Shown here: piece after piece, positions 2 to 23,770 of the stretch
Numbering within the stretch: position 1 is the stretch's first letter
Layout: each line of letters opens with the position of its first letter
DNA from: Chthonomonadales bacterium
GTDB lineage: Bacteria; Armatimonadota; Chthonomonadetes; Chthonomonadales; Chthonomonadaceae
Assembly: GCA_038217285.1 (NCBI GenBank)
Contig: JBBQPO010000056.1
Span: 1 to 25,039, forward strand
DNA: 25,039 nucleotides
Direction of reading: 5' to 3'
Notes under the pieces: generated by a model
What the model was told of the DNA's origin: nothing
Database searches by the model: none
The model's input: the letters and a program-made list of their open reading frames with translations, nothing else
Made by a program: the position numbers and the translations under genes

Positions 2-1203
<1,202 letters not shown>

Positions 1204-5006: not shown

Positions 5007-5064
5007 TCTCATCCTCCAGGACATTTTTCAGGCCACAATTTCTGTCCTATTCGAGGTCGCCTCG

Positions 5065-6195
5065 TTAATGAAGCGCTTTGGCCAGGCGGTCTACAATAAA
5101 AGTGAAAGACGAGGAGGCATTGGGGTCGAAATGACCGAACAGACGGCGGGCATCCTGATCGTGCCACGCATCCAGTTCATGCGTCGAAGGCGGACGCGGG
5201 TTGCCATGCAGTTTCTTGAAATCCAGCGAACCCAAATTGTACTTTTCGTTTCGTCCAGTTTCCAGGTAGCGTGCCAGTTCATCCAACTGCTGGTTGACGT
5301 TGTAGCATCGATCCGGTGAGAGATGCCCTACGCTCTCCATAAACGCTTCTCCATAGACAACACACTCACTGGGTGAATCCCAAACCTTCTCCCGGTACAT
5401 CGTGCGCTTCGCCTGCTCCCAGGCTAATAGTCCCCATACTGAAAGCTCTGTCTCTCCGCCGTACTGAAACAGCAGCGTCTCCGGGATCGCGGAAATATCT
5501 TCTGCCGGCAAGCGGAGATGAAGGCGACGGAATGACCGCAAATTCGCCCGCACTATCTCTTCCGTTGCCAGTTTGGCAGGCAGGCGTGGGATACGCAGCA
5601 GATCGGCGCCGGTCTCGAATATATAGACCGTCTCATCTGCATAGAACATGCCAAGCGACTGCAAAAAGCCCTGGACGCTCTTGAATCCCCCCGTGAGGTT
5701 GAAGACGATTCTGTATCCGCTCTCCCGATAAGCGCTCAAGGTCGTTTCCGCCCACTGTACCAGTTCGGAGAGGGCCATCTGGAAGGCGCTCAGATCCTTT
5801 GTCTGGAGATCCCTCTGCCGTTTTACCTCAACCGTTACCTGCCGCTGACGCAGCCACTCCGCCGCCAGAAGCGCCGACTGTTCCCCCAGCCAGGTATCCG
5901 TGCAGAGCAGCAGATGATAGTCTTGTCCCGCCTCCACCGTCCCACCATAGAGTTTGATGATCCCATTCAGTTCCGCCGATTTTTTCGCCGCCTCCGTCTC
6001 CTTCGCCCCCAACATCAACGCGCGTACCACAGCAAGACGGGCCTCCAACAGCCCCCGATCCGTTGCGGGAATCTCTTCAGGCGTGGTTGTGTTGGCATAA
6101 GCTATCAGCAGTTTGCGCTCTGCGTCACTCGCCCCATTCGTCCACAAACTCGTCCCACAAGGCGACAGAATAAATCGCGGTGATTTCATGGTCAT
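5065..6195 (-). CDS. cami1: CARF (APE2256-like) effector with C-terminal RelE-like domain; Cami1-like mRNA interferase
   Basis: PCGTSL, SAELNG, TDT..G and FNLTGGFKS motifs of APE2256-type CARF. The last ~95 aa (VVYGEAFMESV...DFKKLHG...HELDAW..DARRLFGHF) follow a RelE-like pattern. Confidence 0.75.
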   Translation of the reverse strand: MTMKSPRFILSPCGTSLWTNGASDAERKLLIAYANTTTPEEIPATDRGLLEARLAVVRALMLGAKETEAAKKSAELNGIIKLYGGTVEAGQDYHLLLCTDTWLGEQSALLAAEWLRQRQVTVEVKRQRDLQTKDLSAFQMALSELVQWAETTLSAYRESGYRIVFNLTGGFKSVQGFLQSLGMFYADETVYIFETGADLLRIPRLPAKLATEEIVRANLRSFRRLHLRLPAEDISAIPETLLFQYGGETELSVWGLLAWEQAKRTMYREKVWDSPSECVVYGEAFMESVGHLSPDRCYNVNQQLDELARYLETGRNEKYNLGSLDFKKLHGNPRPPSTHELDAWHDQDARRLFGHFDPNASSSFTFIVDRLAKALH

Positions 6196-6259
6196 CTATT
6201 TCCTGCGCGCATCCGACAACCGACTGGTAACGAACCGAGATGGCAGTTATCGCACCAGT

Positions 6260-8830: not shown

Positions 8831-8835
8831 GGCTT

Positions 8836-9414
8836 TTACTCCGCATGTTTCGCTTTCAGAGGTTTTAGTTCGACGAGGCGACTTACAGTGATTGTGGCAG
8901 TTGGTTCTGAGTTCAGATAGTGCCTGATAACAAGGCGAGCCGATTCTATCGCTGATCCTGCGTTAGTATTGGTCGGCATTGATAGTGGCGGCGTATGGCG
9001 CATCCCCTGGGCTCCCTCTCTGAGGAGAGTGAACCCGTCAAGATGGTCTTCAATGTGCGTACCCCAAAGTAGTGTATCCTCATCGAAATATTCTGCGGAC
9101 TCACCTGGTACGTCGGTCGTCTTGCGCCATCCGAACTGCGCACTGTTCTTACGCCAGAGGAAAAGTTCCGATTGGGAGTTGAACACGCGTAGTTGTTGCA
9201 GGGCGGTCATGATGAAGACAGGTTGTTTGTGATCCGGGAAGTCAGGAGCGAGAACAAGTTTCCCCTCCTTGCAACTTCCCCACCGTACGCCACTATCGAG
9301 ATGAGCCAGCAAGGTAAACTCGCCCTTCGTTATAAAAGACGTCAGTTCCTTCATTGGGTCGTCTGTAACTCCAGGTTCGTGTTTAACATCACTGTATTTA
9401 AGTATTCTGCTCAT
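8836..9414 (-). CDS. csx19: Type III-D subunit Csx19
   Basis: LAHLDSGVRWG, LQQLRVFN..SELFLWR, LLWGT and L.IRHYL...SRLV motifs; canonical position between Cas7-Cas7 and Cas7-insertion. Confidence 0.85.
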   Translation of the reverse strand: MSRILKYSDVKHEPGVTDDPMKELTSFITKGEFTLLAHLDSGVRWGSCKEGKLVLAPDFPDHKQPVFIMTALQQLRVFNSQSELFLWRKNSAQFGWRKTTDVPGESAEYFDEDTLLWGTHIEDHLDGFTLLREGAQGMRHTPPLSMPTNTNAGSAIESARLVIRHYLNSEPTATITVSRLVELKPLKAKHAE

Positions 9415-10805
9415 TTTTTAGCGCTCCATGCCCCAACCGCACTCTCAAGCATTACTCTGGCTTCCTCTGATATTTGCAGTGTTCCGTCCGCCTTCTCCGT
9501 GATTGCGTAATCAACGCCATTGTATTTCACGTCTGCACGCTTGCCGTGAAGCCGTCCTCTTCCAACACTGCTTTCTCCACCTAACGGGAGGTCACCCGTC
9601 CACAGATCCTTGAGGAGGAGCAACAGGAGTCCTATTTCGCTGTCCCTACCTGCGGCACTCTCGTCTTTAGATGGCTTTAGTTCGAAGTGAAGATGGACAA
9701 TGGTGGCATTATCTCCAAAAACTGGCTGTTGATTGAACAGAAACTGGTCGCGGGCTCCTCCAGTAAAACGGTCGATGCTGACGCGGGACTGTACCAGATG
9801 GTCGATCCCCTCTTTGATTTCATGTTCCCAGACCAGAAGACGGCTTGCTTTTAGCGGCTTGCCCGAGGCTCCCAATGGCCCGAAGAGCGCATCGATGATA
9901 TCGCCTGCGTCTTGTTTATTAAGCGTATTGGCAATCTTGAGGGCACGGGCGCGCATGGCACCGGCCACAGACGTTCCGGAGAGTATCGGCACATCTGGTT
10001 TCCCAGTACGCTTAGCCTTGAGATGAACCATATCCGGAGCATTCTCGCCTCGATCCACCGAGCGTATCAAGAGAGAACCGTCGAGCCAGAACTTGGCATC
10101 CAGTACAAACCTGTTGCGCCCATCCGGTAGCGGCGTCACTTTCAGTCCGGATTTCATCGACACGCGCTGCGAGATGCCTCGTGCATAGATCCAATCCGCT
10201 AAGCCTCGTGGAGTCGTCAGGTCGTATTCTCGAACCTCCCAGATCTCCACTTTCGCCCGTCCATAGCCCCTGGTCTTGCGGCCACCTACCGGAATCTGTT
10301 CCGATTCGAAGCCCAAGAGCGCTGTTGCCAATGCCGTTCTCAGCATCGTCTCGTCGTCGTCATGGCAGATCAGCAGTTCGAAAAGGAGGGGAAAGATCGT
10401 GCCTGCCGCCCAGCATTCCCGGTTGTAAAGCGCGTCCTTTACCGCTGTTCTGGATTTGGAATCCAAACGCACACCGTCGCGGACTTCGACTTCATTACCT
10501 TCACCTAGCGAATCCTCGACGATCAACGGGCTCTGGGGCTCGGCCGCATTTGTTCCGAACAGTAACTCTGCATGCCTCGCATCGATCTCCCGAAGGTATG
10601 CTCGAACGGCTCCTGCAATAGACGATCCTGTGAGAAGGGGCTTTCCTTCCAGGGCATCTGTTAGAAGCGGCAAGTCCACCTGATCGTCGTTGTCTCCATT
10701 GCTCAGGGATGCAAGGGTTTGAAGAACAAGGCTACCTTGTACAACGATTCGTTTCTTGATTTTGCGGGAGTTCTCGGGTTGCCAACTTGCGTCCGGGAGT
10801 GTCAC
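9411..10805 (-). CDS. cas7: Tandem Cas7-Cas7 (Csm3-like x2) RAMP
   Basis: Two RAMP units: PLLTGSSIAGAVRA...VGGRKTRGYG and PILSGTSVAGAMRA...VSIDRFTGGA...LGGESSVGRG. Confidence 0.9.
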   Translation of the reverse strand: MTLPDASWQPENSRKIKKRIVVQGSLVLQTLASLSNGDNDDQVDLPLLTDALEGKPLLTGSSIAGAVRAYLREIDARHAELLFGTNAAEPQSPLIVEDSLGEGNEVEVRDGVRLDSKSRTAVKDALYNRECWAAGTIFPLLFELLICHDDDETMLRTALATALLGFESEQIPVGGRKTRGYGRAKVEIWEVREYDLTTPRGLADWIYARGISQRVSMKSGLKVTPLPDGRNRFVLDAKFWLDGSLLIRSVDRGENAPDMVHLKAKRTGKPDVPILSGTSVAGAMRARALKIANTLNKQDAGDIIDALFGPLGASGKPLKASRLLVWEHEIKEGIDHLVQSRVSIDRFTGGARDQFLFNQQPVFGDNATIVHLHFELKPSKDESAAGRDSEIGLLLLLLKDLWTGDLPLGGESSVGRGRLHGKRADVKYNGVDYAITEKADGTLQISEEARVMLESAVGAWSAKK

Positions 10806-12307
10806 GGTCGCTCCTCCTTCTCTTTCTGCATTCTTGCCAGAACCGAGTCGAGGAACCGGAGCTGCCTCTTCACCTGTTCAGCCTCTGACTCGATGTGGCG
10901 CTTGCCGCCGATTTCGGGGGGCTTAGCCCGAAACTCGGCCTTCAGCGCCTTGTAACCATCCAGCCAGGAAAGGAGATCTTCTCCTCTTGTTCCCACTCTG
11001 GCCTTCCTCCACTGCAGCGCTGTTTTCGCGGTAAGATCATTGCAGAAACGCTCGATGCACGAGAGCTTCGGACTGTCCAGGAGTGTCTCATGCAGAATGA
11101 CTTCTCGCAGTCTGGCAATCTGGCTGCTATTCAACTCTTTGCGCTGCGTTCTCGTATCCGTCAACATCCTCAATACTTTCCTCGCCTGTTGCGCTTCGTT
11201 GACCCTGCGAGAGATCAAGGTTGCTACCTCGATCTCGTCCGGATCCGAAAGTGCGATGTCGGCAGCATCGCGTTTGCCATCATCCCTGGTAAGACTCCAG
11301 TGTGACGGAGGAGAAAATACCGCTAAGCGTCCAAAACCCTCTGACCGGCGCTCTCCGATCCCGTTGATTTCGAGAGCATCAATTTCGGACTCACTCAGCG
11401 ACCTGGCAGGCAGCACGAGAACGGTGCCTTGCTTGTAGGCCAGGGCCTGTGGAAGCGGAAGGCCCCAGGTTCTATTGAATGCTCCTACCGGTGTTGTTTC
11501 GATAAAGGCGTTCTCAACGCTGATTCCGTTCTTGATTGCCTGGATCAGGGTGTCCGGGGAGACCGCAAACTGACCGAGTTCATCTCTTACCAGTGCATCA
11601 CTCAATAGAAGCACGATTTGACACATGTCATGATCTTCTTCTAAGCAAAAGGGGTGTTCTTTCCAACCTTGTTCTTCTGTCCCCGACAACGTGACATTGA
11701 CTTTGCCATAACCTGCGCGCGCGGCACCGCCCAGTCTGTCGATCTCTGTCACAAGAGCACAGATCAGGTTTGCCTCCTCGGTCCTCTCGCAAAGCGCTAC
11801 AGCCTCGAACACTTGGGATGCTGCGAGCGCATCGTATCTATATACGGTGCCGCTGTCCGGCCTGGCGGTCCCGAGCCGACGGTCTCTTGTCGTATGGATC
11901 GCAAGTTGCCGCTTTATCTCTGCAGCAATCCCCTTTCCGCTCTCATCGACGGAGGCAAAGCTAGCGCCAGGGGTTTTCCATTGCAGGTCTGAACGCAGTT
12001 GCTCAACACTTCCGTCATAGATCTCATCGTCGATTGAGAGGGTATCTTTTTGTTGCCGAAGCGAAAGTGGCAGTGGCAGCGCACGGCTATCGTCCGCGAC
12101 AATATATCCGTTCAGAAAGCGCACTTGCTCCGAAAGGAAAGAACCTAAATCGGCACACGGGTCATGTCGCAACAGGGTTGAGATGAAGGCACCGCGCAGT
12201 GCACTTCCAGGAAGGTACTCGATCGAGACCGCGCTGTTTGGATCCCCATCCAATCCCGTCAGCAATGCAGGTTCCTGTAGTTCAAGCCTATACCTGATGA
12301 CAATCAT
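10802..12307 (-). CDS. csx10: Csx10-like Cas5 RAMP with C-terminal helical small-subunit (Cas11-like) domain
   Basis: YLPGSALRGA, LGGAARAGYG, LLSDALV, GAFNRTWGLP and GIGERRSEGFG motifs; helical C-terminus with LNSSQIARLRE (the Cas11 call is an inference). Confidence 0.8.
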   Translation of the reverse strand: MIVIRYRLELQEPALLTGLDGDPNSAVSIEYLPGSALRGAFISTLLRHDPCADLGSFLSEQVRFLNGYIVADDSRALPLPLSLRQQKDTLSIDDEIYDGSVEQLRSDLQWKTPGASFASVDESGKGIAAEIKRQLAIHTTRDRRLGTARPDSGTVYRYDALAASQVFEAVALCERTEEANLICALVTEIDRLGGAARAGYGKVNVTLSGTEEQGWKEHPFCLEEDHDMCQIVLLLSDALVRDELGQFAVSPDTLIQAIKNGISVENAFIETTPVGAFNRTWGLPLPQALAYKQGTVLVLPARSLSESEIDALEINGIGERRSEGFGRLAVFSPPSHWSLTRDDGKRDAADIALSDPDEIEVATLISRRVNEAQQARKVLRMLTDTRTQRKELNSSQIARLREVILHETLLDSPKLSCIERFCNDLTAKTALQWRKARVGTRGEDLLSWLDGYKALKAEFRAKPPEIGGKRHIESEAEQVKRQLRFLDSVLARMQKEKEERP

Positions 12308-12960
12308 ATCGCCCCCTCCGGAAAAAGCAACGTAGGCTTGATCACCGCGCCTGAACCCATAAGCTCCGTTGCAAGTTTGCCTCGCCCGCGGTTTCTGCCG
12401 AGCCCGCCACGCCTCAAGCAGAGCGCACAGGCCGCCAGAAGTTGCTCGTCCATCCCCTTAGGCTCCTCGGAAAGTTTCAGTTCAGCGGTGAAGGTGAGGC
12501 TGCGTAAGACTGCCCGCTCCGTACGGAGGGAGTTCTTCACCGGCACGCCGTCTTGACCAATGGCTGTCTGACGGCGAACAGTGGTCAGGGACTCCAGAAA
12601 TTCAGCCGGGCTGATCTTGTTTCCTGTTACTTGGGCGATCACCGCCTGCTGTAAATTTCCAGGCAGGGTCGCCTGCCCGACAAACAGTAGGCCCGCGTCC
12701 TCGGTTCTGCTGCCCGGAACGCCGAAGAGCCGTTTCGCCGAGAGACGTGCTGCGTCGAGGTGAGCAGAATGGGACTCTCGGAGGCCATACAGCAGGTTGG
12801 CGCACTCTTCTACCAGTAGTCCTCGCAATGTACGCCCGCGCACAGATGGCAAGCCCGAGTGCGTGTCATACTCGACTTCGGTATCAATGAGGCCGGCTAC
12901 CCCTTCTCCCGATCCAAAAGTAGTGTCGCTTAGCAGCGTTATTTTGAGTTGATAGATCAT
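12304..12960 (-). CDS. cas7: Stand-alone Cas7-family RAMP (Csm3-like)
   Basis: LKITLLSD..FGSG.G.AGLID, GLP.VRGRTLRGLL, LFG.PG, RRQTAI and GGLGRNRGRG motifs. Confidence 0.88.
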   Translation of the reverse strand: MIYQLKITLLSDTTFGSGEGVAGLIDTEVEYDTHSGLPSVRGRTLRGLLVEECANLLYGLRESHSAHLDAARLSAKRLFGVPGSRTEDAGLLFVGQATLPGNLQQAVIAQVTGNKISPAEFLESLTTVRRQTAIGQDGVPVKNSLRTERAVLRSLTFTAELKLSEEPKGMDEQLLAACALCLRRGGLGRNRGRGKLATELMGSGAVIKPTLLFPEGAI

Positions 12961-14519
12961 GGCAGTGGCACCTGGATAAAAATATCGGCCAGTTCAATGG
13001 CGTCAAACAGAGTACATTGGGCTTTGTCCCAACCATCCTGAGGATTATCAGGCGCAAGTTCCTTCTTCAGTTGGTAGAGGATTCTGAATTTCGCTACGGC
13101 CTCGGCACCGCCGCGTAACTCTTCCCGCAGAGCCTTCATCTTATTGCGCTTTTCCGACCAATCGACATCCATCTGAAAATGGCGCGTCGTCGCCTCAACT
13201 TCCTTCCAGGAGCGATAACGTTGGGTTGAGGGTACCAGGGAGACCGGACGTTGATGCAGGCTGCCTGCCGATACTGTATATTCCGTATCTCGAATCTCTT
13301 TGATGGCGGATGACAGACCGGAGAGACCAAAATGCCAATCGAGGCAGGAACCTAAAGGTCGATCTGTCTTTTTGCGGAACTCTTTGGCGCTTTTACAGAG
13401 TTCCCCCGCCATAGCATACGCGCGGGCAAAGGGATGGTGCGATTTTACGATAGCTATTCCTGCGCAGGCTGTCAATTGATCTCCAATCAGGGCTTTTCGT
13501 TCCGGTTGGTTCGTCTCCTCTTCAAAGTACTTGAGATAGAGAGTTGCCAGAGAAATCCCGACTCTGCCATCACACACAAACGTTATGTCGTCTCCGCCAT
13601 AGACCAAGGGACGGAGAGGAAGGTACTCTCTGTGCTGAGCGCCATGACCCTCCCTGACAAGCTTTATTTGAAGACGTTCAGAGTAGTAGATTCCTGCGCA
13701 ACCCCCTTCCGGAGTAGTTACAGCATCTACTAAATCAGAGATCGTCCGCTTCATTGCCGCAATCCCCGCGTCGTTCACTGCATCTGAGAATTTCTTGAGA
13801 GCGTCGAGATAAGCGTCGTTCTGGTCTGGCTTTGGGTAGTGGTCTGCGATCTTTTGAAGCTGTTTGCCCATAGCGTTTCCGTCGGCGTGAACAATAGCAA
13901 TATAGCTCTGTTCCTCGATTGTCCGTCCGAGTTTGTCCAGGTCCTTGGGAAACGAGTACTCGCGAGCCACAAACTTGTCTTTAAGATCGTCGTCGGCATT
14001 GTCCGCAGCGTTTTCCTTCGCCAACACTTCTGCAGAAGCCTCGATAAGACGCTTGCTTCCTGGCTCCGGGCGAAATCCGACGGCAGCCAGACCAGTAGAC
14101 CGACACGCGCGGGTGATACCATATCCCAGAGCCGGACTGGTTCTTACTCGGGTGCGCTTCATGCCGTCGATCCGTTTCTGTATGGCAGGGAAGACGGTCT
14201 TTGCCATGCTGTCTGCGGCGAAATCGAATGGCTCGTGTGCCACAATCAGGTTTAGACCAGGAGCTTCCAATATCGCCTTCCGGGTCAACTCCCGTTCAAA
14301 TGCATCGGCCTCGGGTTGCGTATCAAAACATACCGCGAAGTTGCCGCCGCCTGCGTAGAGAGTTCTGGCCTTCCCATGGGATGCCGTCACCGCCGCCGTT
14401 TCCGCCCAGGGTCCTGTAGCGCACTTCACCAGATACGACGCTCCAATGTTTTCGCGCAGTCGGTTCGATCCGAATATGTAGGACTGAACCCCTGATGTGT
14501 CAACAAATGTGAGTATCAT
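12957..14519 (-). CDS. cas10: Type III-D Cas10 (Palm cyclase/polymerase, no HD domain)
   Basis: Begins MILTFVDTSGVQSYIFGSNRLRENIGAS; YAGGGN, IVHADGNAMG and LVYGGDDITFV (GGDD), AGIAIVKSHHPF motifs. Start ATG 14519 overlaps the upstream stop (ATGA); the track extension to 14681 lies inside the upstream gene. Confidence 0.93.
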   Translation of the reverse strand: MILTFVDTSGVQSYIFGSNRLRENIGASYLVKCATGPWAETAAVTASHGKARTLYAGGGNFAVCFDTQPEADAFERELTRKAILEAPGLNLIVAHEPFDFAADSMAKTVFPAIQKRIDGMKRTRVRTSPALGYGITRACRSTGLAAVGFRPEPGSKRLIEASAEVLAKENAADNADDDLKDKFVAREYSFPKDLDKLGRTIEEQSYIAIVHADGNAMGKQLQKIADHYPKPDQNDAYLDALKKFSDAVNDAGIAAMKRTISDLVDAVTTPEGGCAGIYYSERLQIKLVREGHGAQHREYLPLRPLVYGGDDITFVCDGRVGISLATLYLKYFEEETNQPERKALIGDQLTACAGIAIVKSHHPFARAYAMAGELCKSAKEFRKKTDRPLGSCLDWHFGLSGLSSAIKEIRDTEYTVSAGSLHQRPVSLVPSTQRYRSWKEVEATTRHFQMDVDWSEKRNKMKALREELRGGAEAVAKFRILYQLKKELAPDNPQDGWDKAQCTLFDAIELADIFIQVPLP

Positions 14520-15907
14520 GCGGTCTTTCCCTCCTCTTCCACAGTCTTGATCCAGTTCTTGATGTGGTCGTGCAAACCCAGCAGGTGGTCGATCCCAAAA
14601 ACCCGAATCTTCGACTTCTCGCTTAGAATGTTGCTTGCTTCCTTTTCGAGGTTCAGACAATCTGCCCTTCTGAGGAGACACACGAAGGCAACTCGTGCCT
14701 CATCGCCGCCAATCTGACGGGCCCGCATGATTGCTTCGAAGAGTTTCCACTTCGCGCGTCCCTCACCCTCATTGATTTCCCGTTCGATAGCACATGAGAA
14801 ACCGAAGAGTTGGTAGCCTCTGATTCCGAGTACATCCAGTTCAAATTTTATATCTTTGAAATTCGGGTAGGTAGGTTCGATGTTAATGCACATGTCGTGC
14901 ATTCCGAATCCGCCGTTTTTGTTCGCCTGCTTCAAACAGTGCAGAGTGTAGTGTTCCAGCCATTTTCCGCAGATCCATTCATAAAAGGTATTGATGAAAC
15001 CGACGGAGCCCACCGGCTTGCTTGCAACAAGATCCAAGTGGTTTACATTGAACGGAAGTTCGGTTCTCAGCACGTCGCGGAGGTCTACAGACAGGCCAGA
15101 AAGATCAACCGGTTGATAGGCAGCAAGATTCGCCTCCAGTTCCGATAAATACCGGGGATCATCGGACCTTAATCCTGGTTTTGCCGCTTTAAGGTGGTCT
15201 GCTATCCCTTTACTATTTTTTTCACTTTTGAATCTTTGACCGGCATATCGTCCGTCTTTAAAGTCTAGCCAGGCATGGAGTTGTGGCCCGCCAGCCTTGC
15301 TGATTCTCGCAAGTTCGACAGCGGTTTTGGGTAAGAATACCGTCTCTTGAGGCCGGCCGTTCTTGAATTTGCCCCCGTGTAGACCTAGCATTCCGGCCAG
15401 AGAGACCTGATCAGCCTGCATATCGATGTAATCTTCTTCATTGCCGGACGATGGATCTTCCATATCAAAATAGAGCCGCAGATTACGCGCACTCAGGTAG
15501 CTGAGGAGCGGCTTCCCCTTGTTGGGTGCCCAATTGGAGACAACACGATGTGCGTGAACGGCCATCGCTTTCGTCCCGGTGGTGTAGTGAAGTCCAGCAC
15601 GTTTCCCAGGGTGCAGGGCAAGCGCATTTGAAACTACCGTGCAGATACTCGACTGTCGCGATTCATCCATCAGTTCCTGGAACACTCCCACACGAACCCC
15701 TTGTCCAGCCAGTTTTTGCTCCAGGTACGGTAGAAGATAGTCAGCGCCTATCTCTTTCGTGCCTTCCGTGCATAACATTGTCACCACGCCGCCAGCCTTG
15801 ACAAGGCGTGACGCAGTGACGGCATTTGGTAGAGTATTGCCTCCAATCAGCAGAAGTAGATGCTCCGCTTTGTAATGTTCCAGGTCGTTGATGTCGATTT
15901 CGGGCAC
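14516..15907 (-). CDS. CARF + PD-(D/E)xK-type nuclease effector, Can2/Card1 (DUF1887)-like
   Basis: CARF motifs HLLLLIGGNTLPN and GLHYTTGTKAMAV; nuclease motifs GKWLEHY, FELDVLG...LFGFSC and RARQIGGDEA. Start GTG 15907 with AAGGAGG upstream (track start 16033). Confidence 0.8.
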   Translation of the reverse strand: MPEIDINDLEHYKAEHLLLLIGGNTLPNAVTASRLVKAGGVVTMLCTEGTKEIGADYLLPYLEQKLAGQGVRVGVFQELMDESRQSSICTVVSNALALHPGKRAGLHYTTGTKAMAVHAHRVVSNWAPNKGKPLLSYLSARNLRLYFDMEDPSSGNEEDYIDMQADQVSLAGMLGLHGGKFKNGRPQETVFLPKTAVELARISKAGGPQLHAWLDFKDGRYAGQRFKSEKNSKGIADHLKAAKPGLRSDDPRYLSELEANLAAYQPVDLSGLSVDLRDVLRTELPFNVNHLDLVASKPVGSVGFINTFYEWICGKWLEHYTLHCLKQANKNGGFGMHDMCINIEPTYPNFKDIKFELDVLGIRGYQLFGFSCAIEREINEGEGRAKWKLFEAIMRARQIGGDEARVAFVCLLRRADCLNLEKEASNILSEKSKIRVFGIDHLLGLHDHIKNWIKTVEEEGKTA

Positions 15908-16152
15908 GAGTGCCTCCTTCTTCTCTCTGAATGCCCAGATGTTCAAATGTGTGACGTGGGATGGAACTTTTCCTGAATTGGATTCCGGCGAGAGGAACAG
16001 TATTGCCTGGTAGATTTGCCGGACTATCTGCATTTACCTGCGTGGTAATCCGGAAAAGCGGTCAAATTATCCAAAATATTTAAGGAGGCTGGCATTTTAA
16101 TTGTTTTTGTGAGGGATGAAACTTTTCTGGGCGCGTTGCTGTCAGTGGTTGT

Positions 16153-16433
16153 GCGGATGGGCATACGCTGTTTGCTCATTCGCGGTGCGCACCTCCGTGC
16201 GCTGATTCGAAAGCGGGTTCTCAAAAACCCGCGCCTTTAGAAACGGTCTGTGTCTTCGCTCGATGAGACAGGCCGACCTGTCAGATCTCTCCGCACATGC
16301 GGTGAGGTTTGTAAGCCTCGTGTTTGAGTTAGCTTTACGAAGCACTCAATCGCAGGCTGAACACAACCTGAAACACCGGCCTTACATCGCCCCGCGAATT
16401 CCCTCGCTTTGGGGTGCTGACGGCTCACAGGTT
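16153..16433 (+). ncRNA. Candidate structured non-coding RNA / 5' leader of unknown family
   Basis: Four consecutive hairpins (16153-16183, 16187-16202, 16213-16232, 16244-16275) followed by a multi-branched domain closed by 16278-16284/16417-16423. Several non-Watson-Crick positions read as G-U on the + strand. Folded by eye only. Confidence 0.5.
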
Positions 16434-16469
16434 GCTAACAGGAAGTTCATTCTAAAGGGGAACCGAATC

Positions 16470-17186
16470 ATGCGCCGCAATCTCACTCTCAATCCGCTCG
16501 CCGATCAGATCCGATGCCATCTGCATCTCAACGTCACACCCCGCGTTTCCGGATACTGGAATCGCATGGCGAAGGCGTGTTCACGTCGCCCTGATCGCTA
16601 TCGCTTTTATCACCCAGACTTCGATCAGTTCGATATCCATATGGTGGACGAAGTCATGGAGTATCTCGCTGCCTGCGGCTACGACCCGCTTCTGCCTCTT
16701 GCGAATCATCTCAAGCGGGCGGAACGCCTTCTGTGGAGCTTCTGGAAGAAAAACGTTCATCTGGAGCGTTGGGCCTGCCGGATCACTCCGCTCTCTCTGG
16801 ATCAACAGTTAGAAGAGCACGGCGACACTGCGCTGGAAGGCGCACTCGATCTTCTGGATCGTCCTCTGGCAGACATGGACCGCTACTTCGACTCAAACTG
16901 TGAACAACGCACTTTTATGGCGTTGCGGGAGGAAGGGTGGCCGAAGATAAAAGCAGAAGTGGTCGTGATGAAGGTCTTCGAGGGATATGACTACAAGACG
17001 CTTGCGGAATACCTTCAGATCGTGGAGGCTCAGGCCGTTCTCCCCGCCACTATCCGACAGTGGGTCAGCCGCGATTTCAAACAGGTAGGGCGTAGAATTC
17101 TGCCCAGAGTTCTGGAGTGGGAGCCGCCGCCAGAGGATCTTCGCCCCGACCGCCGTCACAAACCCAGGCGTTCCAGGCATTCTTAA
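16470..17186 (+). CDS. Divergent sigma70-family-like protein (region 4-type HTH)
   Basis: PLSLDQQLEEHGD resembles the sigma 'SLD' linker; KAEVVVMKVFEGYDYKTLAEYL...ATIRQWVSR resembles a sigma region-4 HTH. Start ATG 16470 after AAAGGGG (track start 16263). Region 2 not clearly recognised. Confidence 0.55.
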   Translation: MRRNLTLNPLADQIRCHLHLNVTPRVSGYWNRMAKACSRRPDRYRFYHPDFDQFDIHMVDEVMEYLAACGYDPLLPLANHLKRAERLLWSFWKKNVHLERWACRITPLSLDQQLEEHGDTALEGALDLLDRPLADMDRYFDSNCEQRTFMALREEGWPKIKAEVVVMKVFEGYDYKTLAEYLQIVEAQAVLPATIRQWVSRDFKQVGRRILPRVLEWEPPPEDLRPDRRHKPRRSRHS

Positions 17187-17269
17187 TCAATAGCGGAGAC
17201 AACCAGCCGATGGAAAGGCTCCGAGATCATCCTACGAATCAGACTCGACCGTTTAGAAAGGACATCGTT

Positions 17270-18844
17270 ATGAACACCGAAACCCGCAATGGCAACTATA
17301 GTAACGGCATCACTTCACTTCCTGCTCGTCCGGATTCTGACGATGTCACGGTCGTCGTTGCGCCTTCCGAGGTTCGCTCCAACATGCCTGTTGTTGCACA
17401 GACAGTGGAGGCGCGCAATACCAACAGTCTTCTGACCCGGCTACGCGATAAGTGGGGCAACCGTCTTCCCGAATCGTTCGCCGCCTCTGTACCCTTTCTG
17501 CCCAACAAGCCTCTGGAGGAGTCGCCGCTGGCCTCTACTTTTGCCGTCATTGCAGCGGAGCGGCCTGGGCAGGCAGGCCGTTTGGCTGCGCTCTATGAGC
17601 GCCTTATGCAGGCGCTGGACCGCCTGATCGCCGTTCGCGCCGAGGAAGAGGCCCAGATAGAAGCCTGCAATGGGCGCGTGATGAGTCGAAAGGCCGCCAT
17701 CTCCGGCGAACAGGCCCGCCTCGAAGCGGCGCGCGACGCGGTGCAGCCCGAAGTCCGAAGCGACCTGAAGGACATCGAACCCGTGCTGGCTGCCGCGCAT
17801 GAGGAGGCGACGCATAAAGTCGCGGCAACGGGCGGAACCTACGATCCCGATATGCCTTCCGATGCGTGCGTGCTGCGCCATGCCCACAAACCCCAGGAGG
17901 TCGCCGCCGCTCATCTGCGCCTGCCCTGGATACCGGGAGATGCCGTGTATGCCTGGGTGCATCGGCTGAGCTGGGCGCTGACCCTTTTGGTCGGCGCATG
18001 GATCGGCCTCTCCATCGGCTTCGTCACGGGTATCGTACATCCGGGCAGTCTCGACCGTGAATGGCCCCAGGCCGTGCTGCTGTTCGTGCTGGGGCAGGTC
18101 GTCTCGGTGCCGGCCTACCTGGGAATCTTCCATACCTTCCGCATCGCCACCCAGCGCTACTATTTGGACCATAAGCCCCTGAGTTGGGCGCCCTTCGCCG
18201 CTCTGGGTGTCGCGGCTTCTCTCGCCATCGTCTGCCTTTGCGCCAACACCGACCGCCTGGGTCTGGTCCATTTGATCCAACTCAACGATGCCACCGCTGC
18301 GCTGGACGGTCAGCAGCATACGTCCGCCAACGATATGGGCTACTGGCTTGTCGCCCTGCTCGTCTCCGTTCCCTTTGCCATCGCCACCGCTGCCGAGGCT
18401 TATCTCAGCGGCCGCAGAACGGCCGTCCCCAACCGGATCGAGGCAGAGCGACACGACCACTTCCAGCAGACCGACACCGCCAGACGCGCCGAACCGGTCG
18501 TGCAGGAGGCGCTTCGTGTTATCGCCTATGTGAACGAGATCCTGCGCCGCCAGTCGGCACTCCGGACCCAACTGGACGCAGGCGAAGCGCCTTTCACCCG
18601 CAAACTCGACGCGCTTACCGCCGAATCCGGAAGCCTGCAAGAGACGCATGCGCTGGACGACGCAGCCCTGCGCCGCATTCAGGACGCCCATGACAACGCC
18701 CAGTGGGCGCAACTCTGGCTAGATTTCGAGATCGAATGGGCGCTGGATGAATGCGAACCCTCCCACAGTTTTTGGCGGCGGCTGAGACGCGCCCTGTTCC
18801 GCCCGCGCGCCCCTCGTCGCTTTTCGCGCTCCAAGCGCCGCTAA
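17270..18844 (+). CDS. Uncharacterised membrane protein: coiled coil, ~4 TM helices, coiled coil
   Basis: Heptad-rich segments flank hydrophobic helices (LSWALTLLVGAWIGLSIGFVTG; AVLLFVLGQVVSVPAYLG; PFAALGVAASLAIVCLCA; YWLVALLVSVPFAIATAA). Start ATG 17270 after AGAAAGGA. Confidence 0.7.
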   Translation: MNTETRNGNYSNGITSLPARPDSDDVTVVVAPSEVRSNMPVVAQTVEARNTNSLLTRLRDKWGNRLPESFAASVPFLPNKPLEESPLASTFAVIAAERPGQAGRLAALYERLMQALDRLIAVRAEEEAQIEACNGRVMSRKAAISGEQARLEAARDAVQPEVRSDLKDIEPVLAAAHEEATHKVAATGGTYDPDMPSDACVLRHAHKPQEVAAAHLRLPWIPGDAVYAWVHRLSWALTLLVGAWIGLSIGFVTGIVHPGSLDREWPQAVLLFVLGQVVSVPAYLGIFHTFRIATQRYYLDHKPLSWAPFAALGVAASLAIVCLCANTDRLGLVHLIQLNDATAALDGQQHTSANDMGYWLVALLVSVPFAIATAAEAYLSGRRTAVPNRIEAERHDHFQQTDTARRAEPVVQEALRVIAYVNEILRRQSALRTQLDAGEAPFTRKLDALTAESGSLQETHALDDAALRRIQDAHDNAQWAQLWLDFEIEWALDECEPSHSFWRRLRRALFRPRAPRRFSRSKRR

Positions 18845-18881
18845 AACGAACCTAGATTTTTGAGGAAAGGAAACAACTCCC

Positions 18882-19541
18882 ATGAAAACCAGAACTCTTA
18901 CCACTCGAACCCGCCGCATACTCGCACCGTTGTGTTGCCTCTTCTGTCTGGCGCTTCTGGACGGCTGTGGCTCGCGTCAGCGGCTGACTCCAGTGGCGTC
19001 GTTCGTGGGGGTCGATGCTTCCGTCAGTACGCGCCACTGCCAGCCTGCGTATGTCGCCCTGATTTCCGGCTACACCGGTCGCCTGGAGCCCGACTGCGAT
19101 CATCTCACCATCTACCGCGTCGAGAGGCAGACCTTCGAGATATTCGATGACCGCGCCCCTGGCAATCAGGAAGCGATGCAGGCACGCATGGTCGCTCAAC
19201 TGCGCAAACATCCACGCGAGGACGGAACGTATCCTGCGCTCTTCTGGAAAACCGTTGCAGAACGTGCGGAACACGCTTCCGGGAAAGTCCTGGTCACGCT
19301 CTACTCGGATGGAGATAACGACGACCAGACCGAAACCGCCCGTGAGACCATCCGGGCCGCAGCGCGCCGCCTCGCCGCCAATCCCCATGTCGTCGCGGTA
19401 GCCATCTGTGGCGTCAATCCCGACAACCGGGCGGCGCTCCGCAGACTCTTCCAGCCGTGCGGTGATCGTCTCCTGCTCTTCGGCCCGGATCAACTCGATC
19501 AAAACACGCTCCATCGTCTGCACGCACTCGTTCAGCGCTGA
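18882..19541 (+). CDS. Predicted lipoprotein with vWA-like (MIDAS) domain
   Basis: Basic N-terminus, hydrophobic stretch and lipobox-like LLDG|C; MIDAS-like VGVDASVS (DxSxS), DGT and LYSDG motifs. Confidence 0.7.
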   Translation: MKTRTLTTRTRRILAPLCCLFCLALLDGCGSRQRLTPVASFVGVDASVSTRHCQPAYVALISGYTGRLEPDCDHLTIYRVERQTFEIFDDRAPGNQEAMQARMVAQLRKHPREDGTYPALFWKTVAERAEHASGKVLVTLYSDGDNDDQTETARETIRAAARRLAANPHVVAVAICGVNPDNRAALRRLFQPCGDRLLLFGPDQLDQNTLHRLHALVQR

Positions 19542-19607
19542 CTTCTCAAATAGAATGATCCCGCAAATTTCGCGCTTGTTCGTGCGCGAAATGGAAAGGA
19601 TCAGGTT

Positions 19608-20900
19608 TTGCGGGAAAGGTTAAGAAAATCGATGAATCCACCGACCTATGGCGCTGTAGAGGAGATAACATCCGTCTGGTATGGCGGCGCGGCCGCAGCT
19701 ACCGCTGTCGTGAAGCGCGGACCTGTCGTGCCGCCCTTACCCAGCCTCGGCGCATCAACGCTCCTGCCGGGAACGCTGCTGGCAGGGCGCTATCGGCTGG
19801 AACAGTCGCTGGGCGAAGGTGCCTTCGCCCGCGTCTATGCCGCCTGGGACAGTGCGCTCCACCGCTGGGTGGCTGCGAAAATCTCCCCTTCGGCAACCGG
19901 CGGACAGCTCTCGGCGGGCGAAGCCCAACTCCAGGCCGCCTGTCAGCATCCGAACCTCATGCCCCTCTATGATGCAGGGAGCGACCCGCTGCTCGGCGTC
20001 GCCTACATCATCATGCCCCTCTATCCCGGCTCCGATCTGGCCGCCACTCTCAACCGCTATGGCCCCATGCCCTTCCGCACGGCCCTCCTCTGCACCGATC
20101 AGGTCTGCAGCGCCCTGGAGTTTCTCCAACAGCGGCGCAATGCCGTGCATGGCGACATTAAACCGGCCAACATCTGGCTCACCAACAGCGGCGCAGCCCT
20201 CCTCATGGATTTCAACCTCTATGGCCTGCTCACACAGGGTGACTGTCTCCGGGCCGGCACACCGGGCTATACCGCTCCCGAGGCCTTGATGGGACGGATG
20301 GACGCCCGTTCCGACGTTTTCTCCCTTGCCTGCGTCCTCTACCAGTGCCTTGCCGGAAGCCCTCCCTTCACCGACGATGCTGCGGTTCAGGCCGGACAGT
20401 TCACTCCGCTAAGACGCCTCCGCCCTGACCTGCGCCCGGAACTCGAAGCCGTCATTCATCGCGCCCTGGCCCGGCAGCCCGAGCAACGTTTCCAATCCGC
20501 ACGAGAGTTTCAGACCGCCCTACGCCGTCCCGACACTGCGGGTCTGGAGGGACGTATCGCTCTCAACACCATCTTTCGCACATTGATGAGAATCGCCCGA
20601 CAGCTCGGCCGCATGCTCGCCGCCGTCTATCGCCTTACCTGGCGGATGCTCACAAAGTTTCTGCGTCATGCCGTCCATCGCCCCCTCCCTGCCCTTATCG
20701 AAGCCGTCGTTTTCTGCATTCTCAGCCGCGCTGCGCTCGACATGGCGCGCCAAGCCGGCCTCTACTGGTGGAGGCTTCATCAAGGCGACGTAAAGACGGT
20801 CGCTTGGGGTGCACTCTCCCTTGGCGTCGTATCCCTCGTCGGCACGATAGCAAAACCATTTCTGACCCGTCGTAACGCGCAGAGGAGAGCAAAACAGTGA
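19608..20900 (+). CDS. Hanks-type Ser/Thr protein kinase with C-terminal membrane helices
   Basis: LGEGAFARVY, VAAK, HPNL, HGDIKPANI, MDFN, GTPGYTAPE, SDVFSLAC and PEQRF subdomain motifs; two hydrophobic C-terminal segments. Start TTG 19608 or ATG 19632. Confidence 0.92.
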   Translation: MRERLRKSMNPPTYGAVEEITSVWYGGAAAATAVVKRGPVVPPLPSLGASTLLPGTLLAGRYRLEQSLGEGAFARVYAAWDSALHRWVAAKISPSATGGQLSAGEAQLQAACQHPNLMPLYDAGSDPLLGVAYIIMPLYPGSDLAATLNRYGPMPFRTALLCTDQVCSALEFLQQRRNAVHGDIKPANIWLTNSGAALLMDFNLYGLLTQGDCLRAGTPGYTAPEALMGRMDARSDVFSLACVLYQCLAGSPPFTDDAAVQAGQFTPLRRLRPDLRPELEAVIHRALARQPEQRFQSAREFQTALRRPDTAGLEGRIALNTIFRTLMRIARQLGRMLAAVYRLTWRMLTKFLRHAVHRPLPALIEAVVFCILSRAALDMARQAGLYWWRLHQGDVKTVAWGALSLGVVSLVGTIAKPFLTRRNAQRRAKQ

Positions 20901-23770
20901 ACATCAACCGTCCCAAAAACGCCGTCAGCCCCGCCGACAACCGCGCCACTGTGGTCGTTGCCGCGGCCCAGGGCGTTCAGCTGCGTATCCTGAACGGACC
21001 GGAAGCCGGTCGCCTGATCCCCGCCACAGAATTTCCCTGCCGTCTCGGAAGAGGAGACAACTGTCGCGTCGTTCTTGCTGATCCCGACGACCCACCCGCC
21101 CTCTCTCGTGAACACGCCACCCTCTCCCGACCCCGGCGTCACGCGGGCGAAATTGTCGTCACCGATCACAGCCGCAACGGCACCTGCGTCGGCGGCCAAT
21201 GGCTCGCCTCCGGCGAGGCCGAACTGCTGATGCCAGGCGAAACGCTCCAACTCGGTCCTACCCTGCGCCTCCTTCGAGAACATGCGTCCGGCCCAACCTA
21301 TCCCGCGACGGTCATGGTCCCGGAGCAAAAAGCGCAGGATCTCCCGCCGCCTGTCCCTGCAGACCTCCGGGCATTTCTGACGATGCCCGAAACATTACAG
21401 GCAGCCTGGCGGCGAGTCGCCCTGAACCGGGGCGCAGCCGGGCCCGACAACGTCACCCTCCAGGAGTTCGCCCAGACCGCCGACCGCCGACTGACCGTCC
21501 TGCGCAGCGATCTGATGCGCGGACGCTACCAACCCCTGCCGCCCCGCCTGTTCGCCGCCCCCAAACGCAGCGGAGGCGTCCGCGCCATCGCCATCCTCTC
21601 CATCCAAGATCGCATTGTCCAGCAGGCCCTGCACTCCGCCCTCCAACCTCATCTGGAGCGCTTCTTTCCGCCGTGCAGCTATGCCTACCGCCCCGGCGTC
21701 TGTGCCCACCATGCGCTGCGCCGCGTCGATACTCTCTTGAGGGAAGGCCAGACCTGGGTCGCGGAAACCGACATCGCCGGCTTTTTCGACACGATCCAGC
21801 ACACGCTCCTGCTCGAAAAGCTCACGGCCCGTATTCCCGATCCTTTCCTCCTCTCCCTCGTTGCCCGCTGCCTGGCGGTCGGTGCCAGGGCTCCCGGCAT
21901 CGGTATCGCGCAGGGCGCAGCCACCTCTCCCCTCTTCAGCAACCTCTATCTCGCGGAGTTCGATGCCGCCATGCTCGCCGGGGGCTGGAACCCCGTCCGA
22001 TACGGCGACGATCTCCTGTTCCCCGTGCGCGAACGCCATCGCGCCAGGGCTGCGCTCGCCGAAGCCGAAGGCTTCCTGCGTTCTCGCCTGCATCTGACCG
22101 TCAAACCCGAGAAGACAGGTGTCGTCTGCCTCGCCCAGGGATTTACCTTCCTCGGCTTTCACTTCACCGAAGCCGGACGGCAGGCCGCGCCCCAGGCCGT
22201 CGCCCAACTCACCGAACGCCTGCAAGCGGCCACGCCCGAAGCGGCTCCTGCCATCGTTCGCGGCTGGAAAAACTATTTTGGAGCCGAGCCTGACTCCGTC
22301 ATGCCGCAGACTATAATAGAGGAACACATCCCTCCTACACCGCAGGCTGCCTCGGACTATGACGACCAGCCGCCTCGACCGGACGCCATCCCCCTGGTCT
22401 CATCCGCCTTCGCCGCGCTGGACGCCGCCGACATTGCGCGGTTCCTGGCCCTCTTCGGCGGACGCGAAGACCTCATCGCTCGGCAAAGTGGCCAGGGTAG
22501 CCGACCCCGCTTCACAGCGAGCCACGAAAGCCTGTCCCCTGAAAGTGTTCGCCGCCACCTCGCCGGCCTGGAGACCCTGGCCACCTACCTCGTTCGCCTC
22601 GATGGAACGGTTCGTCATCTTGTCTTCGACATGGATATTGCCCAACCACCTGGACGCCCTGCCGCGCAGGAGACCGAAGACCGGGAAGGCATTCAAGACG
22701 TGAAGGCCTTTGCCGAGGACATCTACCGTGTCTGTCGCTCCCTCGGTCTCCCTGCTTGCCTCGAAGACAGCGGTCGGCGCGGGCGGCATCTCTGGATCTT
22801 CTTCTCCGAAGGAGTTGCGCCGGAACGGGCACGGCGTTTGGCGCGCTTGCTATCGTTGCGCGCGGGCTTTCCCCGTGACGGCGTTCGGCTCGAAATCTTT
22901 CCTCGCCATACCGACTGGCCCGGCCCTGAACTGGGTGACGCCGTCAAACTCCCGTTCGGTGTCCATCCCGCCACGGGACGCCGCTGCTTCTTCCTGGATG
23001 CCTCCGGCGAGCCGATCCCGGATCCCGCCGCAGCGCTGGAGCGCATTCGAACCGTCTCCCCCGCAGAAGTGGAAGGACTCATTACCGTCCTCTCCCAGCT
23101 CGAAACCGCCGGAGCAACAGAGCAAAACCTGCCGCCACGAAAAGACACTGTCCCTCCAAGCGCCGTCGATAAACTGGTCTCCGGATGTTCCGTCATCCGG
23201 ACGCTGGTCCAGCGCGCCCAGCAGACCGGCCATCTGCGCCATACCCACCAGCTCATTCTTCTCTATACGGCCGGACGCCTCGGCCCCGAAGGCGCGGCCT
23301 TTCTGCATCGAACCATTGCCAACTGCCGCAACTACGACGCCGGCATCTGTCAGGGCTACATTGATCGCCTGGAACAGAATCATCCCCCACTCGGTTGCCG
23401 CCGTATCCGCGAATGGCTGGAGGAAGAGGGCGAATCCGCGCTCTGTACTTGCCCTGCCGCACGTCGAACGCCCCTCGAACTCACCACCACGGAAACCGTA
23501 GAGGACGCCCTCGCAGCAAAGCTGAAAAAGCCGCGTTCGCCCCGCGCCCAGGCCTGCCAGACACCGCTGCCCACCGAGGTCCACTCGGCTCTGTGGCAGG
23601 AAGTCGCCGACGATCTCTTCGCCGAGGAGACCGTCGAGACTGTCCTCCCTTCCCCAGATCCAGACGAGGCCTGTCTTTCACATGCGCAGGACGACGGTCT
23701 TTTTCTGCCGGATGATTTTAACGCCCAGGCGACGGAGGCGACGGAGCCTCAGAAGGAATTGGACCTATGA
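20897..23770 (+). CDS. FHA - group II-like reverse transcriptase - AEP primase-polymerase (CAPP) - Cys-rich PriL-like CTD fusion
   Basis: FHA: LGRG..C, LSREHA, SRNGT. RT: AWRRV..NRGAAGPD, PKRSG..R, DRIVQQA, SYAYRPG, DIAGFFD, GIAQG..SPLFSNLYL, RYGDD (22001-22012), FLGF, RGWKNYF. AEP: F.GRED, VFDMD (DMD at 22628-22636), EDSGRRGRHLWIFF, EIFP, VKLPFGVH. CTD: CSVI...CRNYD...C.RI...CTC. Confidence 0.88.
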   Translation: MNINRPKNAVSPADNRATVVVAAAQGVQLRILNGPEAGRLIPATEFPCRLGRGDNCRVVLADPDDPPALSREHATLSRPRRHAGEIVVTDHSRNGTCVGGQWLASGEAELLMPGETLQLGPTLRLLREHASGPTYPATVMVPEQKAQDLPPPVPADLRAFLTMPETLQAAWRRVALNRGAAGPDNVTLQEFAQTADRRLTVLRSDLMRGRYQPLPPRLFAAPKRSGGVRAIAILSIQDRIVQQALHSALQPHLERFFPPCSYAYRPGVCAHHALRRVDTLLREGQTWVAETDIAGFFDTIQHTLLLEKLTARIPDPFLLSLVARCLAVGARAPGIGIAQGAATSPLFSNLYLAEFDAAMLAGGWNPVRYGDDLLFPVRERHRARAALAEAEGFLRSRLHLTVKPEKTGVVCLAQGFTFLGFHFTEAGRQAAPQAVAQLTERLQAATPEAAPAIVRGWKNYFGAEPDSVMPQTIIEEHIPPTPQAASDYDDQPPRPDAIPLVSSAFAALDAADIARFLALFGGREDLIARQSGQGSRPRFTASHESLSPESVRRHLAGLETLATYLVRLDGTVRHLVFDMDIAQPPGRPAAQETEDREGIQDVKAFAEDIYRVCRSLGLPACLEDSGRRGRHLWIFFSEGVAPERARRLARLLSLRAGFPRDGVRLEIFPRHTDWPGPELGDAVKLPFGVHPATGRRCFFLDASGEPIPDPAAALERIRTVSPAEVEGLITVLSQLETAGATEQNLPPRKDTVPPSAVDKLVSGCSVIRTLVQRAQQTGHLRHTHQLILLYTAGRLGPEGAAFLHRTIANCRNYDAGICQGYIDRLEQNHPPLGCRRIREWLEEEGESALCTCPAARRTPLELTTTETVEDALAAKLKKPRSPRAQACQTPLPTEVHSALWQEVADDLFAEETVETVLPSPDPDEACLSHAQDDGLFLPDDFNAQATEATEPQKELDL

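Follow-up and report, generated by a model that had tools for sequence, protein, structure and literature searches.

A probable structured leader RNA predicted to occlude the ribosome-binding site of an orphan regulator-like gene in a type III-D CRISPR-Cas locus

The divergent intergenic region of a type III-D CRISPR-Cas locus from a Chthonomonadales bacterium (assembly GCA_038217285.1, contig JBBQPO010000056.1, positions 1 to 25,039; this whole stretch of 25,039 nucleotides is referred to throughout as ‘the window’) harbors a densely folded element on its + strand, immediately upstream of a gene for an orphan protein of 238 residues. The folding potential of this element is real and lies far beyond chance. 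Its best reading, for which confidence is evenly poised between acceptance and doubt, is that of a structured, untranslated 5' leader of approximately 320 nucleotides (nt; approximately 16153-16469) that, according to its predicted fold, would occlude the ribosome-binding site of the orphan, regulator-like gene and so exert translational control in cis. The element is at present a single-lineage RNA with strong folding statistics, and not yet a new class of RNA; a leader that occludes a ribosome-binding site would represent a new example, from one lineage only, of a kind of control that is already known.

A first-pass annotation, made from the letters of the sequence alone, had proposed a densely base-paired RNA between positions 16153 and 16433, and the folding statistics bear this out. 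When the minimum free energy (MFE) was compared with that of dinucleotide shuffles, the + strand of this segment reached -123.6 kcal/mol, against a mean of -92.1 kcal/mol and a standard deviation of 4.75 for the shuffles (z = -6.63), with none of 200 shuffles folding as well; the - strand was mildly structured (z = -2.18, with 3 of 200 shuffles as good). Folded separately, the 5' half (16153-16275) and the 3' half (16276-16447) gave z-scores of -5.24 and -5.39, respectively, again without an equal among 200 shuffles in either case. In a survey of the entire contig, in which segments of 281 nt were folded at 60-nt steps (413 on each of the two strands, or 826 folds) and their energies regressed on GC content, the three most negative GC-corrected residuals all belonged to the + strand and all overlapped the element. 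The 5' border that had been proposed for it holds, since the preceding part of the intergenic region (16034-16152) is without structure, but the 3' border at 16433 was wrong: the fold runs on to the start codon, and the segment 16153-16480 reaches an MFE of -146.1 kcal/mol (z = -7.32, with none of 100 shuffles as good). The MFE structure of 16153-16433 comprises 94 pairs, which engage 188 of the 281 nt.

Ten helices had been drawn by hand in the first-pass annotation, and seven of these are present at the coordinates proposed for them, with ensemble probabilities of at least 0.73. The remaining three fail: the helix that was thought to close a multi-way junction (16278-84/16417-23) and the long arm TGTAAG/CTTACA (16310-15/16381-86) both have ensemble probabilities of approximately 0, and a CAGG/CCTG helix is not part of the MFE structure. 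Forcing the junction-closing helix and the long arm to form yields -117.8 kcal/mol, which is 5.8 kcal/mol worse than the MFE. The closure that the folding model favors, in place of that junction, is formed by 16277-81/16438-42 together with 16364-70/16428-34; the earlier topology and the favored one are both predictions.

The proposed link between this fold and translation lies in the 43 nt from 16428 to 16470. In the predicted structure these nucleotides find perfect partners in four linkers further upstream, with 28 base pairs (bp) in all, arranged as the nested helices PD, PC, PB and PA. Helix PB (16234-16242/16450-16458, 9 bp) covers the 5' part of the Shine-Dalgarno sequence and helix PA (16203-16209/16464-16470, 7 bp) reaches the A of the AUG, both with a predicted probability of approximately 0.9 or more in a context of 527 nt (16034-16560). 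Their upstream strands, linkers A and B, are segments that had been left single-stranded between the 5' hairpins in the first-pass model, and linker A is unpaired in folds that lack the tail. A perfect 9-mer complement to the ribosome-site segment was encountered in 16 of 2000 shuffles and a nested perfect complement of 9+7 bp in none of 2000, whereas shuffling of the upstream part gave a co-linear chain of at least 28 bp in 7 of 1000 cases, and shuffling of the tail in 5 of 1000.

Deletion of the leader from its 5' end in silico left the mean pairing of positions -20 to +3 at 0.70-0.75 for seven 5' ends, from 16034 to 16203. Removal of linker A (5' end moved to 16213 or 16233, and either 10 or 30 nt of the gene included) gave a mean of 0.49-0.57, and the additional removal of linker B (5' end at 16244 or 16276) gave 0.39-0.45. 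When successively longer prefixes were folded, the hairpins formed as they were made, followed by PD, PC, PB and PA, in that order, with the growing tail and without any refolding. No near-isoenergetic alternative fold was found that frees the ribosome site; because opening it costs approximately 14 kcal/mol, an active trigger is favored over a thermal or equilibrium switch.

Taken together with the feature coordinates collected in the table below, these predictions suggest the following mechanism. Transcription would begin at a promoter upstream of 16153, and hairpins H1-H7 would fold as soon as they are transcribed, keeping four short linkers single-stranded. As the tail (16428-16470) emerges it would zip onto these linkers, creating PD, PC, PB and PA with their 28 bp, such that the ribosome-binding site of the gene for the 238-residue protein would be buried by default and its occlusion would control translation. 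Synthesis of the orphan helix-turn-helix protein would then need the clamp to be opened or cut; conceivable triggers range from a ligand or small RNA to a protein, an RNase or a ribosome that completes a short frame further upstream. Genes further downstream might perhaps be affected as well, through coupling or mRNA stability.

Two short frames on the + strand, 16116-16205 (29 codons) and 16109-16240 (43 codons), have their stops inside linker A and linker B, respectively. By analogy with leader-peptide attenuation of the ermC type, a ribosome that terminates in the linkers would free the tail, although little weight is attached to this idea. Both frames are without good Shine-Dalgarno spacing, and the position of their stops may be due to chance, because stops are to be expected in linkers that are A/U-rich.

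Table. Coordinates of the leader element, its helices and neighboring features (positions refer to the window unless a related locus is named; probabilities are predicted pair probabilities)
Feature	Position	Strand	Remarks
A+T-richer unstructured intergenic part	16034..16152	.	fold z = +0.74; GC 0.46
Hairpin H1	16153..16183	+	11-bp stem with two G-U; 0.96-1.0; present in every prefix fold
Hairpin H2	16187..16202	+	6-bp perfect stem; 0.81-0.86
Linker A (5' strand of helix PA)	16203..16209	+	pairs with 16464-16470, seven perfect pairs
Hairpin H3	16213..16232	+	7-bp perfect stem; 0.83-1.0
Linker B (5' strand of helix PB)	16234..16242	+	pairs with 16450-16458, nine perfect pairs
Hairpin H4	16244..16275	+	8-bp stem with inner extension; 0.84-1.0
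5' strand of helix PC	16277-81	+	pairs with 16438-42
Hairpin H5	16282-16311	+	inner helices 0.99-1.0; contains the first-pass ATCTC/CCGC hairpin (16285-16308)
Hairpin H6	16314..16358	+	UACG tetraloop cap; 0.73-1.0; first-pass TGAGT-GCTT hairpin at ~16324-16349
5' strand of helix PD	16364..16370	+	pairs with 16428-16434, seven perfect pairs
Hairpin H7	16378..16425	+	CGCCCC/GCGA core 0.92-1.0, outer imperfect stem; first-pass GCCCC-GCGA hairpin at 16388-16416
Tail	16428..16472	+	3' strands of PD, PC, PB and PA; Shine-Dalgarno AAGGGG 16455-16460; AUG 16470-16472
238-residue orphan protein, probable C-terminal helix-turn-helix	16470..17186	+	‘sigma-like’ gene of the first-pass annotation
Ser/Thr kinase	19608-20900	+	predicted TTG start
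FHA-RT-PrimPol fusion, 957 residues	20897-23770	+	
Effector operon	4194-16033	-	cas6, CARF protein, fused RAMP, csx19, further RAMPs, short Cas10, Card1-like
Kinase + FHA-RT-PrimPol pairs	window 19608-23770; L001 8656-12649; L002 ~266-4122; L003 1815-5727		

The untranslated status of the leader was judged from the protein that the gene caller had placed across it (P0001, 307 residues, with a start at 16263). A full HMMER search with P0001 against 1.84 billion representatives yielded one real homologue, P0032, which shares 54% identity with it across 211 residues. The alignment spans residues 70-283 of the query, P0032 starts, with the residues MRRN, in exact register with ATG 16470 (M70), and no alignment covers residues 1-69. 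Because this sole homologue starts at the residue that corresponds to ATG 16470, the segment 16263-16469 is regarded as non-coding. The AUG at 16470 has AAGGGG 9 nt upstream, and AAAGG-type motifs are also found before 17270, 18882 and 19608; upstream of ATG 16263 there is no Shine-Dalgarno sequence. The codon score of the 69 upstream codons (-0.044) falls below the 5th percentile of coding sequence (0.053), as defined by 290 in-frame coding windows with a mean of 0.215 and a standard deviation of 0.094. On such sequence comparisons, translation from 16263 appears unlikely.

No relative of the element emerged from any search. Its family had gone unrecognized in the first-pass annotation, and Rfam was likewise silent: the whole window gave no match to Rfam 15 at gathering thresholds, and a search at E values up to 10 (4227 families, positions 15950-16550) returned two sub-threshold matches alone, both on the - strand, to Flavi_CRE (24.3 bits against a threshold of 42) and CPEB3 (10.9 bits against 35). 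A blastn search of the intergenic region against plasmids gave no match. Related loci were sought through the fusion protein encoded further downstream, which joins an FHA domain, a reverse transcriptase (RT) and a primase-polymerase (FHA-RT-PrimPol). An alignment of 23 of its 28 relatives (the short or partial P0020, P0024, P0025, P0028 and P0029 were dropped) was scanned against one genome per species and produced 31 candidate stretches, in which eight loci were confirmed. Four of these (L001-L004, from Chthonomonadales and Armatimonadaceae genome bins) contain true relatives of the RT and gave no match to RNA families in Rfam, and the other four contain different RTs with 29-31% identity. 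The kinase, FHA-RT-PrimPol and Cas1 genes occur in the same order in L001, L002 and L003, and only a C-terminal piece of the PrimPol is present in L004; all eight loci are without the 238-residue, membrane and lipoprotein genes that follow the element in the window, and without a match to its intergenic region. By this comparison the RNA travels with a lineage-specific three-gene cassette and not with the RT, and a role as template or partner of the RT is therefore disfavored.

Of the roles that had been suggested for the RNA in the first-pass annotation, that of a cis-regulatory leader fits best with the position and the pairing of the element: it abuts the ribosome site, the fold is not separated from the gene by any terminator-like site (none in 16322-16470), it is predicted to pair with the ribosome site, and 16263-16469 is not conserved as protein. 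Other results speak against the leader. The complementarity p-values are post hoc, having been calculated after the pairing had been noticed, and stand at approximately 0.005-0.008 for single measures. The mean pairing of positions -20 to +3 is 0.71, and of the 19 other gene starts 6 show a value at least as high. To open the site costs 13.9 kcal/mol, which is the third-highest figure among 20 starts, behind those at 19608 (21.7) and 14681 (17.4). A scan with the sigma-70 consensus gave no + strand promoter, and the codon score of the upstream codons, low as it is, exceeds the off-frame 95th percentile of -0.081. The argument from strand bias is also less secure than had been claimed: nine of the 94 pairs are G-U and none of the seven 1x1 mismatches is A-C, a pattern that had been taken to indicate selection on a + strand RNA, but the count is biased by prediction of the fold on that same strand, and in 83 of 413 contig segments the MFEs of the two strands differ by 19.1 kcal/mol or more, so that such asymmetry is commonplace. 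The family of the 238-residue protein has two members among 5.8 billion proteins. Comparative support did not emerge: blastn of the intergenic region against the eight RT loci gave nothing better than E = 1.6. A covariance model for the 3' domain (16276-16447), for which the one available sequence was entered twice, recovered nothing but the element itself from 129,308 bases (the window and eight loci), apart from two sub-significant echoes on the - strand. Finally, the equivalent intergenic region of L003, where the order is Card1-like gene (- strand), intergenic region, cas6, kinase and RT, is unstructured (z = -0.39).

Several of these results would suit a leader, or a free-standing cluster of hairpins, that does not switch at all and instead stabilizes the 5' end of the mRNA or insulates the divergent promoters from each other, its pairing with the ribosome site being incidental. 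The occlusion measures do not fall outside those of other genes, the structured block opens with a strong hairpin, H1, and no fold of similar energy frees the site without the cost of 14 kcal/mol. However, the nested 9+7 bp complement has no counterpart in 2000 shuffles, and seven hairpins over 320 nt far exceed the needs of a 5' stabilizer, such that this explanation is considered rather unlikely.

Distinctly unlikely is the proposition that the helices are palindromes at the level of DNA (operators or REP/MITE-like repeats), or a chance product of composition, and have no function as RNA. It is true that all of the Watson-Crick helices exist on both strands, that the - strand is itself mildly structured and that energy differences between strands are common. 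However, the z-score of the + strand is far stronger than that of its complement, the G-U pairs are not accompanied by an A-C mismatch, both halves of the element beat all 200 of their shuffles, the 25-kb contig and, with the model of the 3' domain, the eight loci yielded no second copy, and no terminal inverted repeat is found at the ends of the element.

The location of the element in a type III-D locus, where it separates the effector operon from the adaptation operon, also brings to mind a trans-acting or CRISPR-linked RNA: either a cr-like regulatory RNA derived from a degenerate repeat (cr-like RNAs in such places are outlined in one report, 10.1101/2023.03.03.530964), or a binding partner of Cas6 or of the effector complex. 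Local alignment of the CRISPR repeat of L001 places a 10-nt match on linker A, but this match is equalled in 17 of 500 shuffles and is not significant, and a search of the window for the same repeat with up to three mismatches was empty. With the locus’s own array outside the window, and with no terminator to end the RNA before the gene, this possibility is viewed as very improbable.

The gene caller’s assignment, in which 16263-16469 would encode an N-terminal extension of the 307-residue protein P0001 and the fold would lie partly within coding sequence, draws on a frame that is open for 69 codons upstream of 16470, on GC contents of 0.58, 0.435 and 0.565 at the three codon positions, which are mildly coding-like, and on the codon score’s margin over the off-frame distribution. 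An open stretch of that length has a likelihood of about 7% by a rough estimate from base composition, and the alignment that begins at M70, the lack of a Shine-Dalgarno sequence before 16263 and a codon score below the coding range make the extension hard to credit. Scarcely credible at all is another role from the first-pass annotation, in which the RNA would serve FHA-RT-PrimPol as template or partner, much as non-coding RNAs do in retrons and DRT systems. The two share an operon, but 4.4 kb and four genes separate the RNA from the RT downstream. The RT scores 227.5 bits (cut-off 200) with the model for CRISPR-associated primase-polymerases and adjoins Cas1-Cas2, and L001, L002 and L003 retain the kinase-RT-Cas1 order although no match to the RNA is present in any of the eight loci (including all three with a full-length FHA-RT-PrimPol).

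The proposed ribosome-site-occluding leader also permits a more ambitious extension, which is regarded as a long shot: that it acts as a sensor which couples adaptation to the type III CRISPR response. A signal, or cleavage, would open it in the course of infection and so release translation of an orphan transcription regulator, which would switch on the spacer-acquisition operon for the kinase, FHA-RT-PrimPol and Cas1-Cas2. Candidate openers are a cyclic-oligoadenylate-activated nuclease of the divergent operon (Card1-like or CARF), or a second messenger bound directly by the RNA. If true, this would constitute an RNA gate between interference and adaptation, of a class not yet described. Should the leader do no more than gate translation, it would still be among the few cis-acting RNA controls known in CRISPR-Cas loci, and would mark the three-gene cassette as a regulated input to an unusual adaptation module.

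The protein whose synthesis would be controlled is an orphan helical protein with a probable C-terminal helix-turn-helix. The ‘sigma’ label that it had received is unproven: residues 161-184 align with Pfam Sigma70_r4_2, but their score of 14.6 bits (E = 0.027) does not reach the cut-off of 25.7, region 2 gave no match, and the homologue P0032 (encoded on a contig of 1273 nt) has no Pfam match. Searches with the 238-residue protein of NCBIfam, PADLOC and PHROGs and a PDB profile search were empty or insignificant, a word-index search returned only the protein itself, and tblastn against plasmids and phages found nothing. A profile search gave the same two proteins as the HMMER search (P0032 and P0033) and no further member of the family; P0033, a repetitive protein of 704 residues in which 40 residues were matched in 12 stretches, was taken as spurious and not used. 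A feature search of the Atlas led to clusters with GerE, HTH_23, Sigma70_r4_2 and Sigma70_r2 at a score of 0.96, which serve as leads only, and an AF2 model calculated from two sequences has a pLDDT of 49.7. With the sigma identity unproven on the bit score and this model, and with no 6S-like match in Rfam, the suggestion that the element is a sigma-binding RNA finds no support; a 6S-type RNA was rejected on the absence of an Rfam match, the multi-branched predicted fold and the lack of a terminator before the gene.

The gene content of both strands identifies the window as a type III-D CRISPR-Cas locus. In the - strand operon, which begins with a Card1-like CARF nuclease, the large fused RAMP protein matches TIGR03986 (E = 8e-106) and csx19 matches TIGR03984, a model named for type III-D (E = 2e-27). 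Its Cas10 homologue (12957-14681, - strand) is short, at 574 residues, and is matched in its second palm domain alone, with modest scores. The + strand operon diverges from it, beginning at 16470, and encodes in order the 238-residue orphan protein, a membrane protein (with four predicted membrane helices, as read from the translation, and a start most likely at 17270), a lipoprotein-like protein of 219 residues, a Ser/Thr kinase, FHA-RT-PrimPol, Cas1 and, at the end of the window, the start of Cas2. The three-gene cassette at its head (16470-19541) matches no family in Pfam, NCBIfam, PADLOC or PHROGs, and comparison with L003 suggests that it was inserted where the Card1-like gene and the kinase gene would otherwise face each other.

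The element sits in the 436 nt that separate the two operons (16034-16469), and the promoters of both presumably lie in 16034-16152, where the consensus scan placed a sigma-70-like site on the - strand (16095-16066). A sigma-W-like promoter (TGAAAC at 16117 and CGTT at 16134) was rejected for an 11-nt spacer judged to be too short. No terminator-like site was found in the gaps between the genes of the + strand operon; a reading of the element as a terminator or attenuator was discarded, because the sole terminator-like site (16302-16321) competes with helices of probability 0.99. Scans for tRNA genes in the window and in L001-L004 gave none.

No CRISPR array was found within the window, and its own array must lie beyond the window’s end. 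In L001, cas1/cas2 are followed downstream by an array (14123-14744) in which a 37-nt repeat that ends in GAAAC recurs, without variation, at least nine times. In L002, a segment upstream of the kinase (approximately 200-275) resembles by eye the T-arm and acceptor end of a tRNA or tmRNA, although neither ARAGORN nor Rfam made a call. At the far end of the effector operon in the window, a TPR-repeat protein of 539 residues (2514-4133, + strand) adjoins cas6; it has a weak match to a clan AA aspartic protease (TIGR02281, 29.1 bits against a cut-off of 57.95) and none in PADLOC, and recalls the TPR-protease partners of type III-E systems.

In the wider locus, the pairing of the kinase with FHA-RT-PrimPol may be the more general lead. 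In the window, as in each of the three related loci that have a full-length version of the fusion protein, the kinase lies directly upstream of it, and an FHA domain is present in most relatives of FHA-RT-PrimPol; a kinase next to a phosphothreonine-binding FHA domain suggests, on gene content, phospho-control of an adaptation enzyme. RT-PrimPol proteins of this type are known as CRISPR adaptation enzymes, namely the CART-CAPP fusions (PMC10415136, PMC8211822), and neither ‘FHA’ nor ‘kinase’ appears as a word in the main text of either report; a full-text literature search was similarly without yield. The best scores of the RT in the window are those for a group II intron or CRISPR-adaptation type. 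For the kinase, the predicted TTG start (19588-19610) has the highest ribosome-site opening energy of the 20 starts in the window, at 21.7 kcal/mol; this start may be mis-assigned, or the ribosome site of the kinase may likewise be structured.

Among the closest known systems is the Escherichia coli rpoS mRNA, whose self-inhibitory 5' leader extends over several hundred nt, with an upstream segment that pairs with the ribosome site and needs an opening factor. The element resembles it as a long leader before a regulator gene, with long-range pairing onto the ribosome-binding site, but shares no sequence or Rfam similarity with it and has no known small RNA or Hfq partner; in place of a single inhibitory stem its predicted clamp consists of four nested helices separated by hairpins, and its downstream protein is only a putative sigma factor. 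Riboswitches and T-box leaders are likewise structured, cis-acting 5' leaders in which the fold sets access to the ribosome site, as it is predicted to do here. In contrast to these, the element matches none of 4227 Rfam families even at E values up to 10, has no alternative fold of similar energy that could be found, and is represented by one sequence, which defines no conserved aptamer.

The RNAs of retrons and of the defense RTs DRT2 and DRT9 measure 150-300 nt, adjoin their RT and are conserved with it. Like them, the element is a structured RNA in a locus that encodes an RT; unlike them, it is four genes removed from the RT and absent from the three related loci with full-length FHA-RT-PrimPol. 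With the cr-like, CreA and CreR RNAs, as these are outlined in two reports (10.1101/2023.03.03.530964; PMC9458426), it has in common an intergenic position inside a cas locus, but no repeat-like unit can be demonstrated in it and it is ten times longer.

A parallel at the level of the locus is provided by Myxococcus xanthus, in which, according to the abstract of the report, the ECF sigma/anti-sigma pair DdvS/DdvA controls a type III-B system (PMC6061681). In that system, as in the window, a regulator and a membrane protein are found beside a type III CRISPR-Cas locus (PMC6061681). Control by DdvS/DdvA differs from that proposed for the element in being transcriptional and exerted via the anti-sigma factor, with no leader RNA mentioned in the abstract (PMC6061681), and the 238-residue, membrane and lipoprotein genes of the window match no family. 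The precedent of DdvS/DdvA offers, nonetheless, a rationale for placing such a regulator under tight control.

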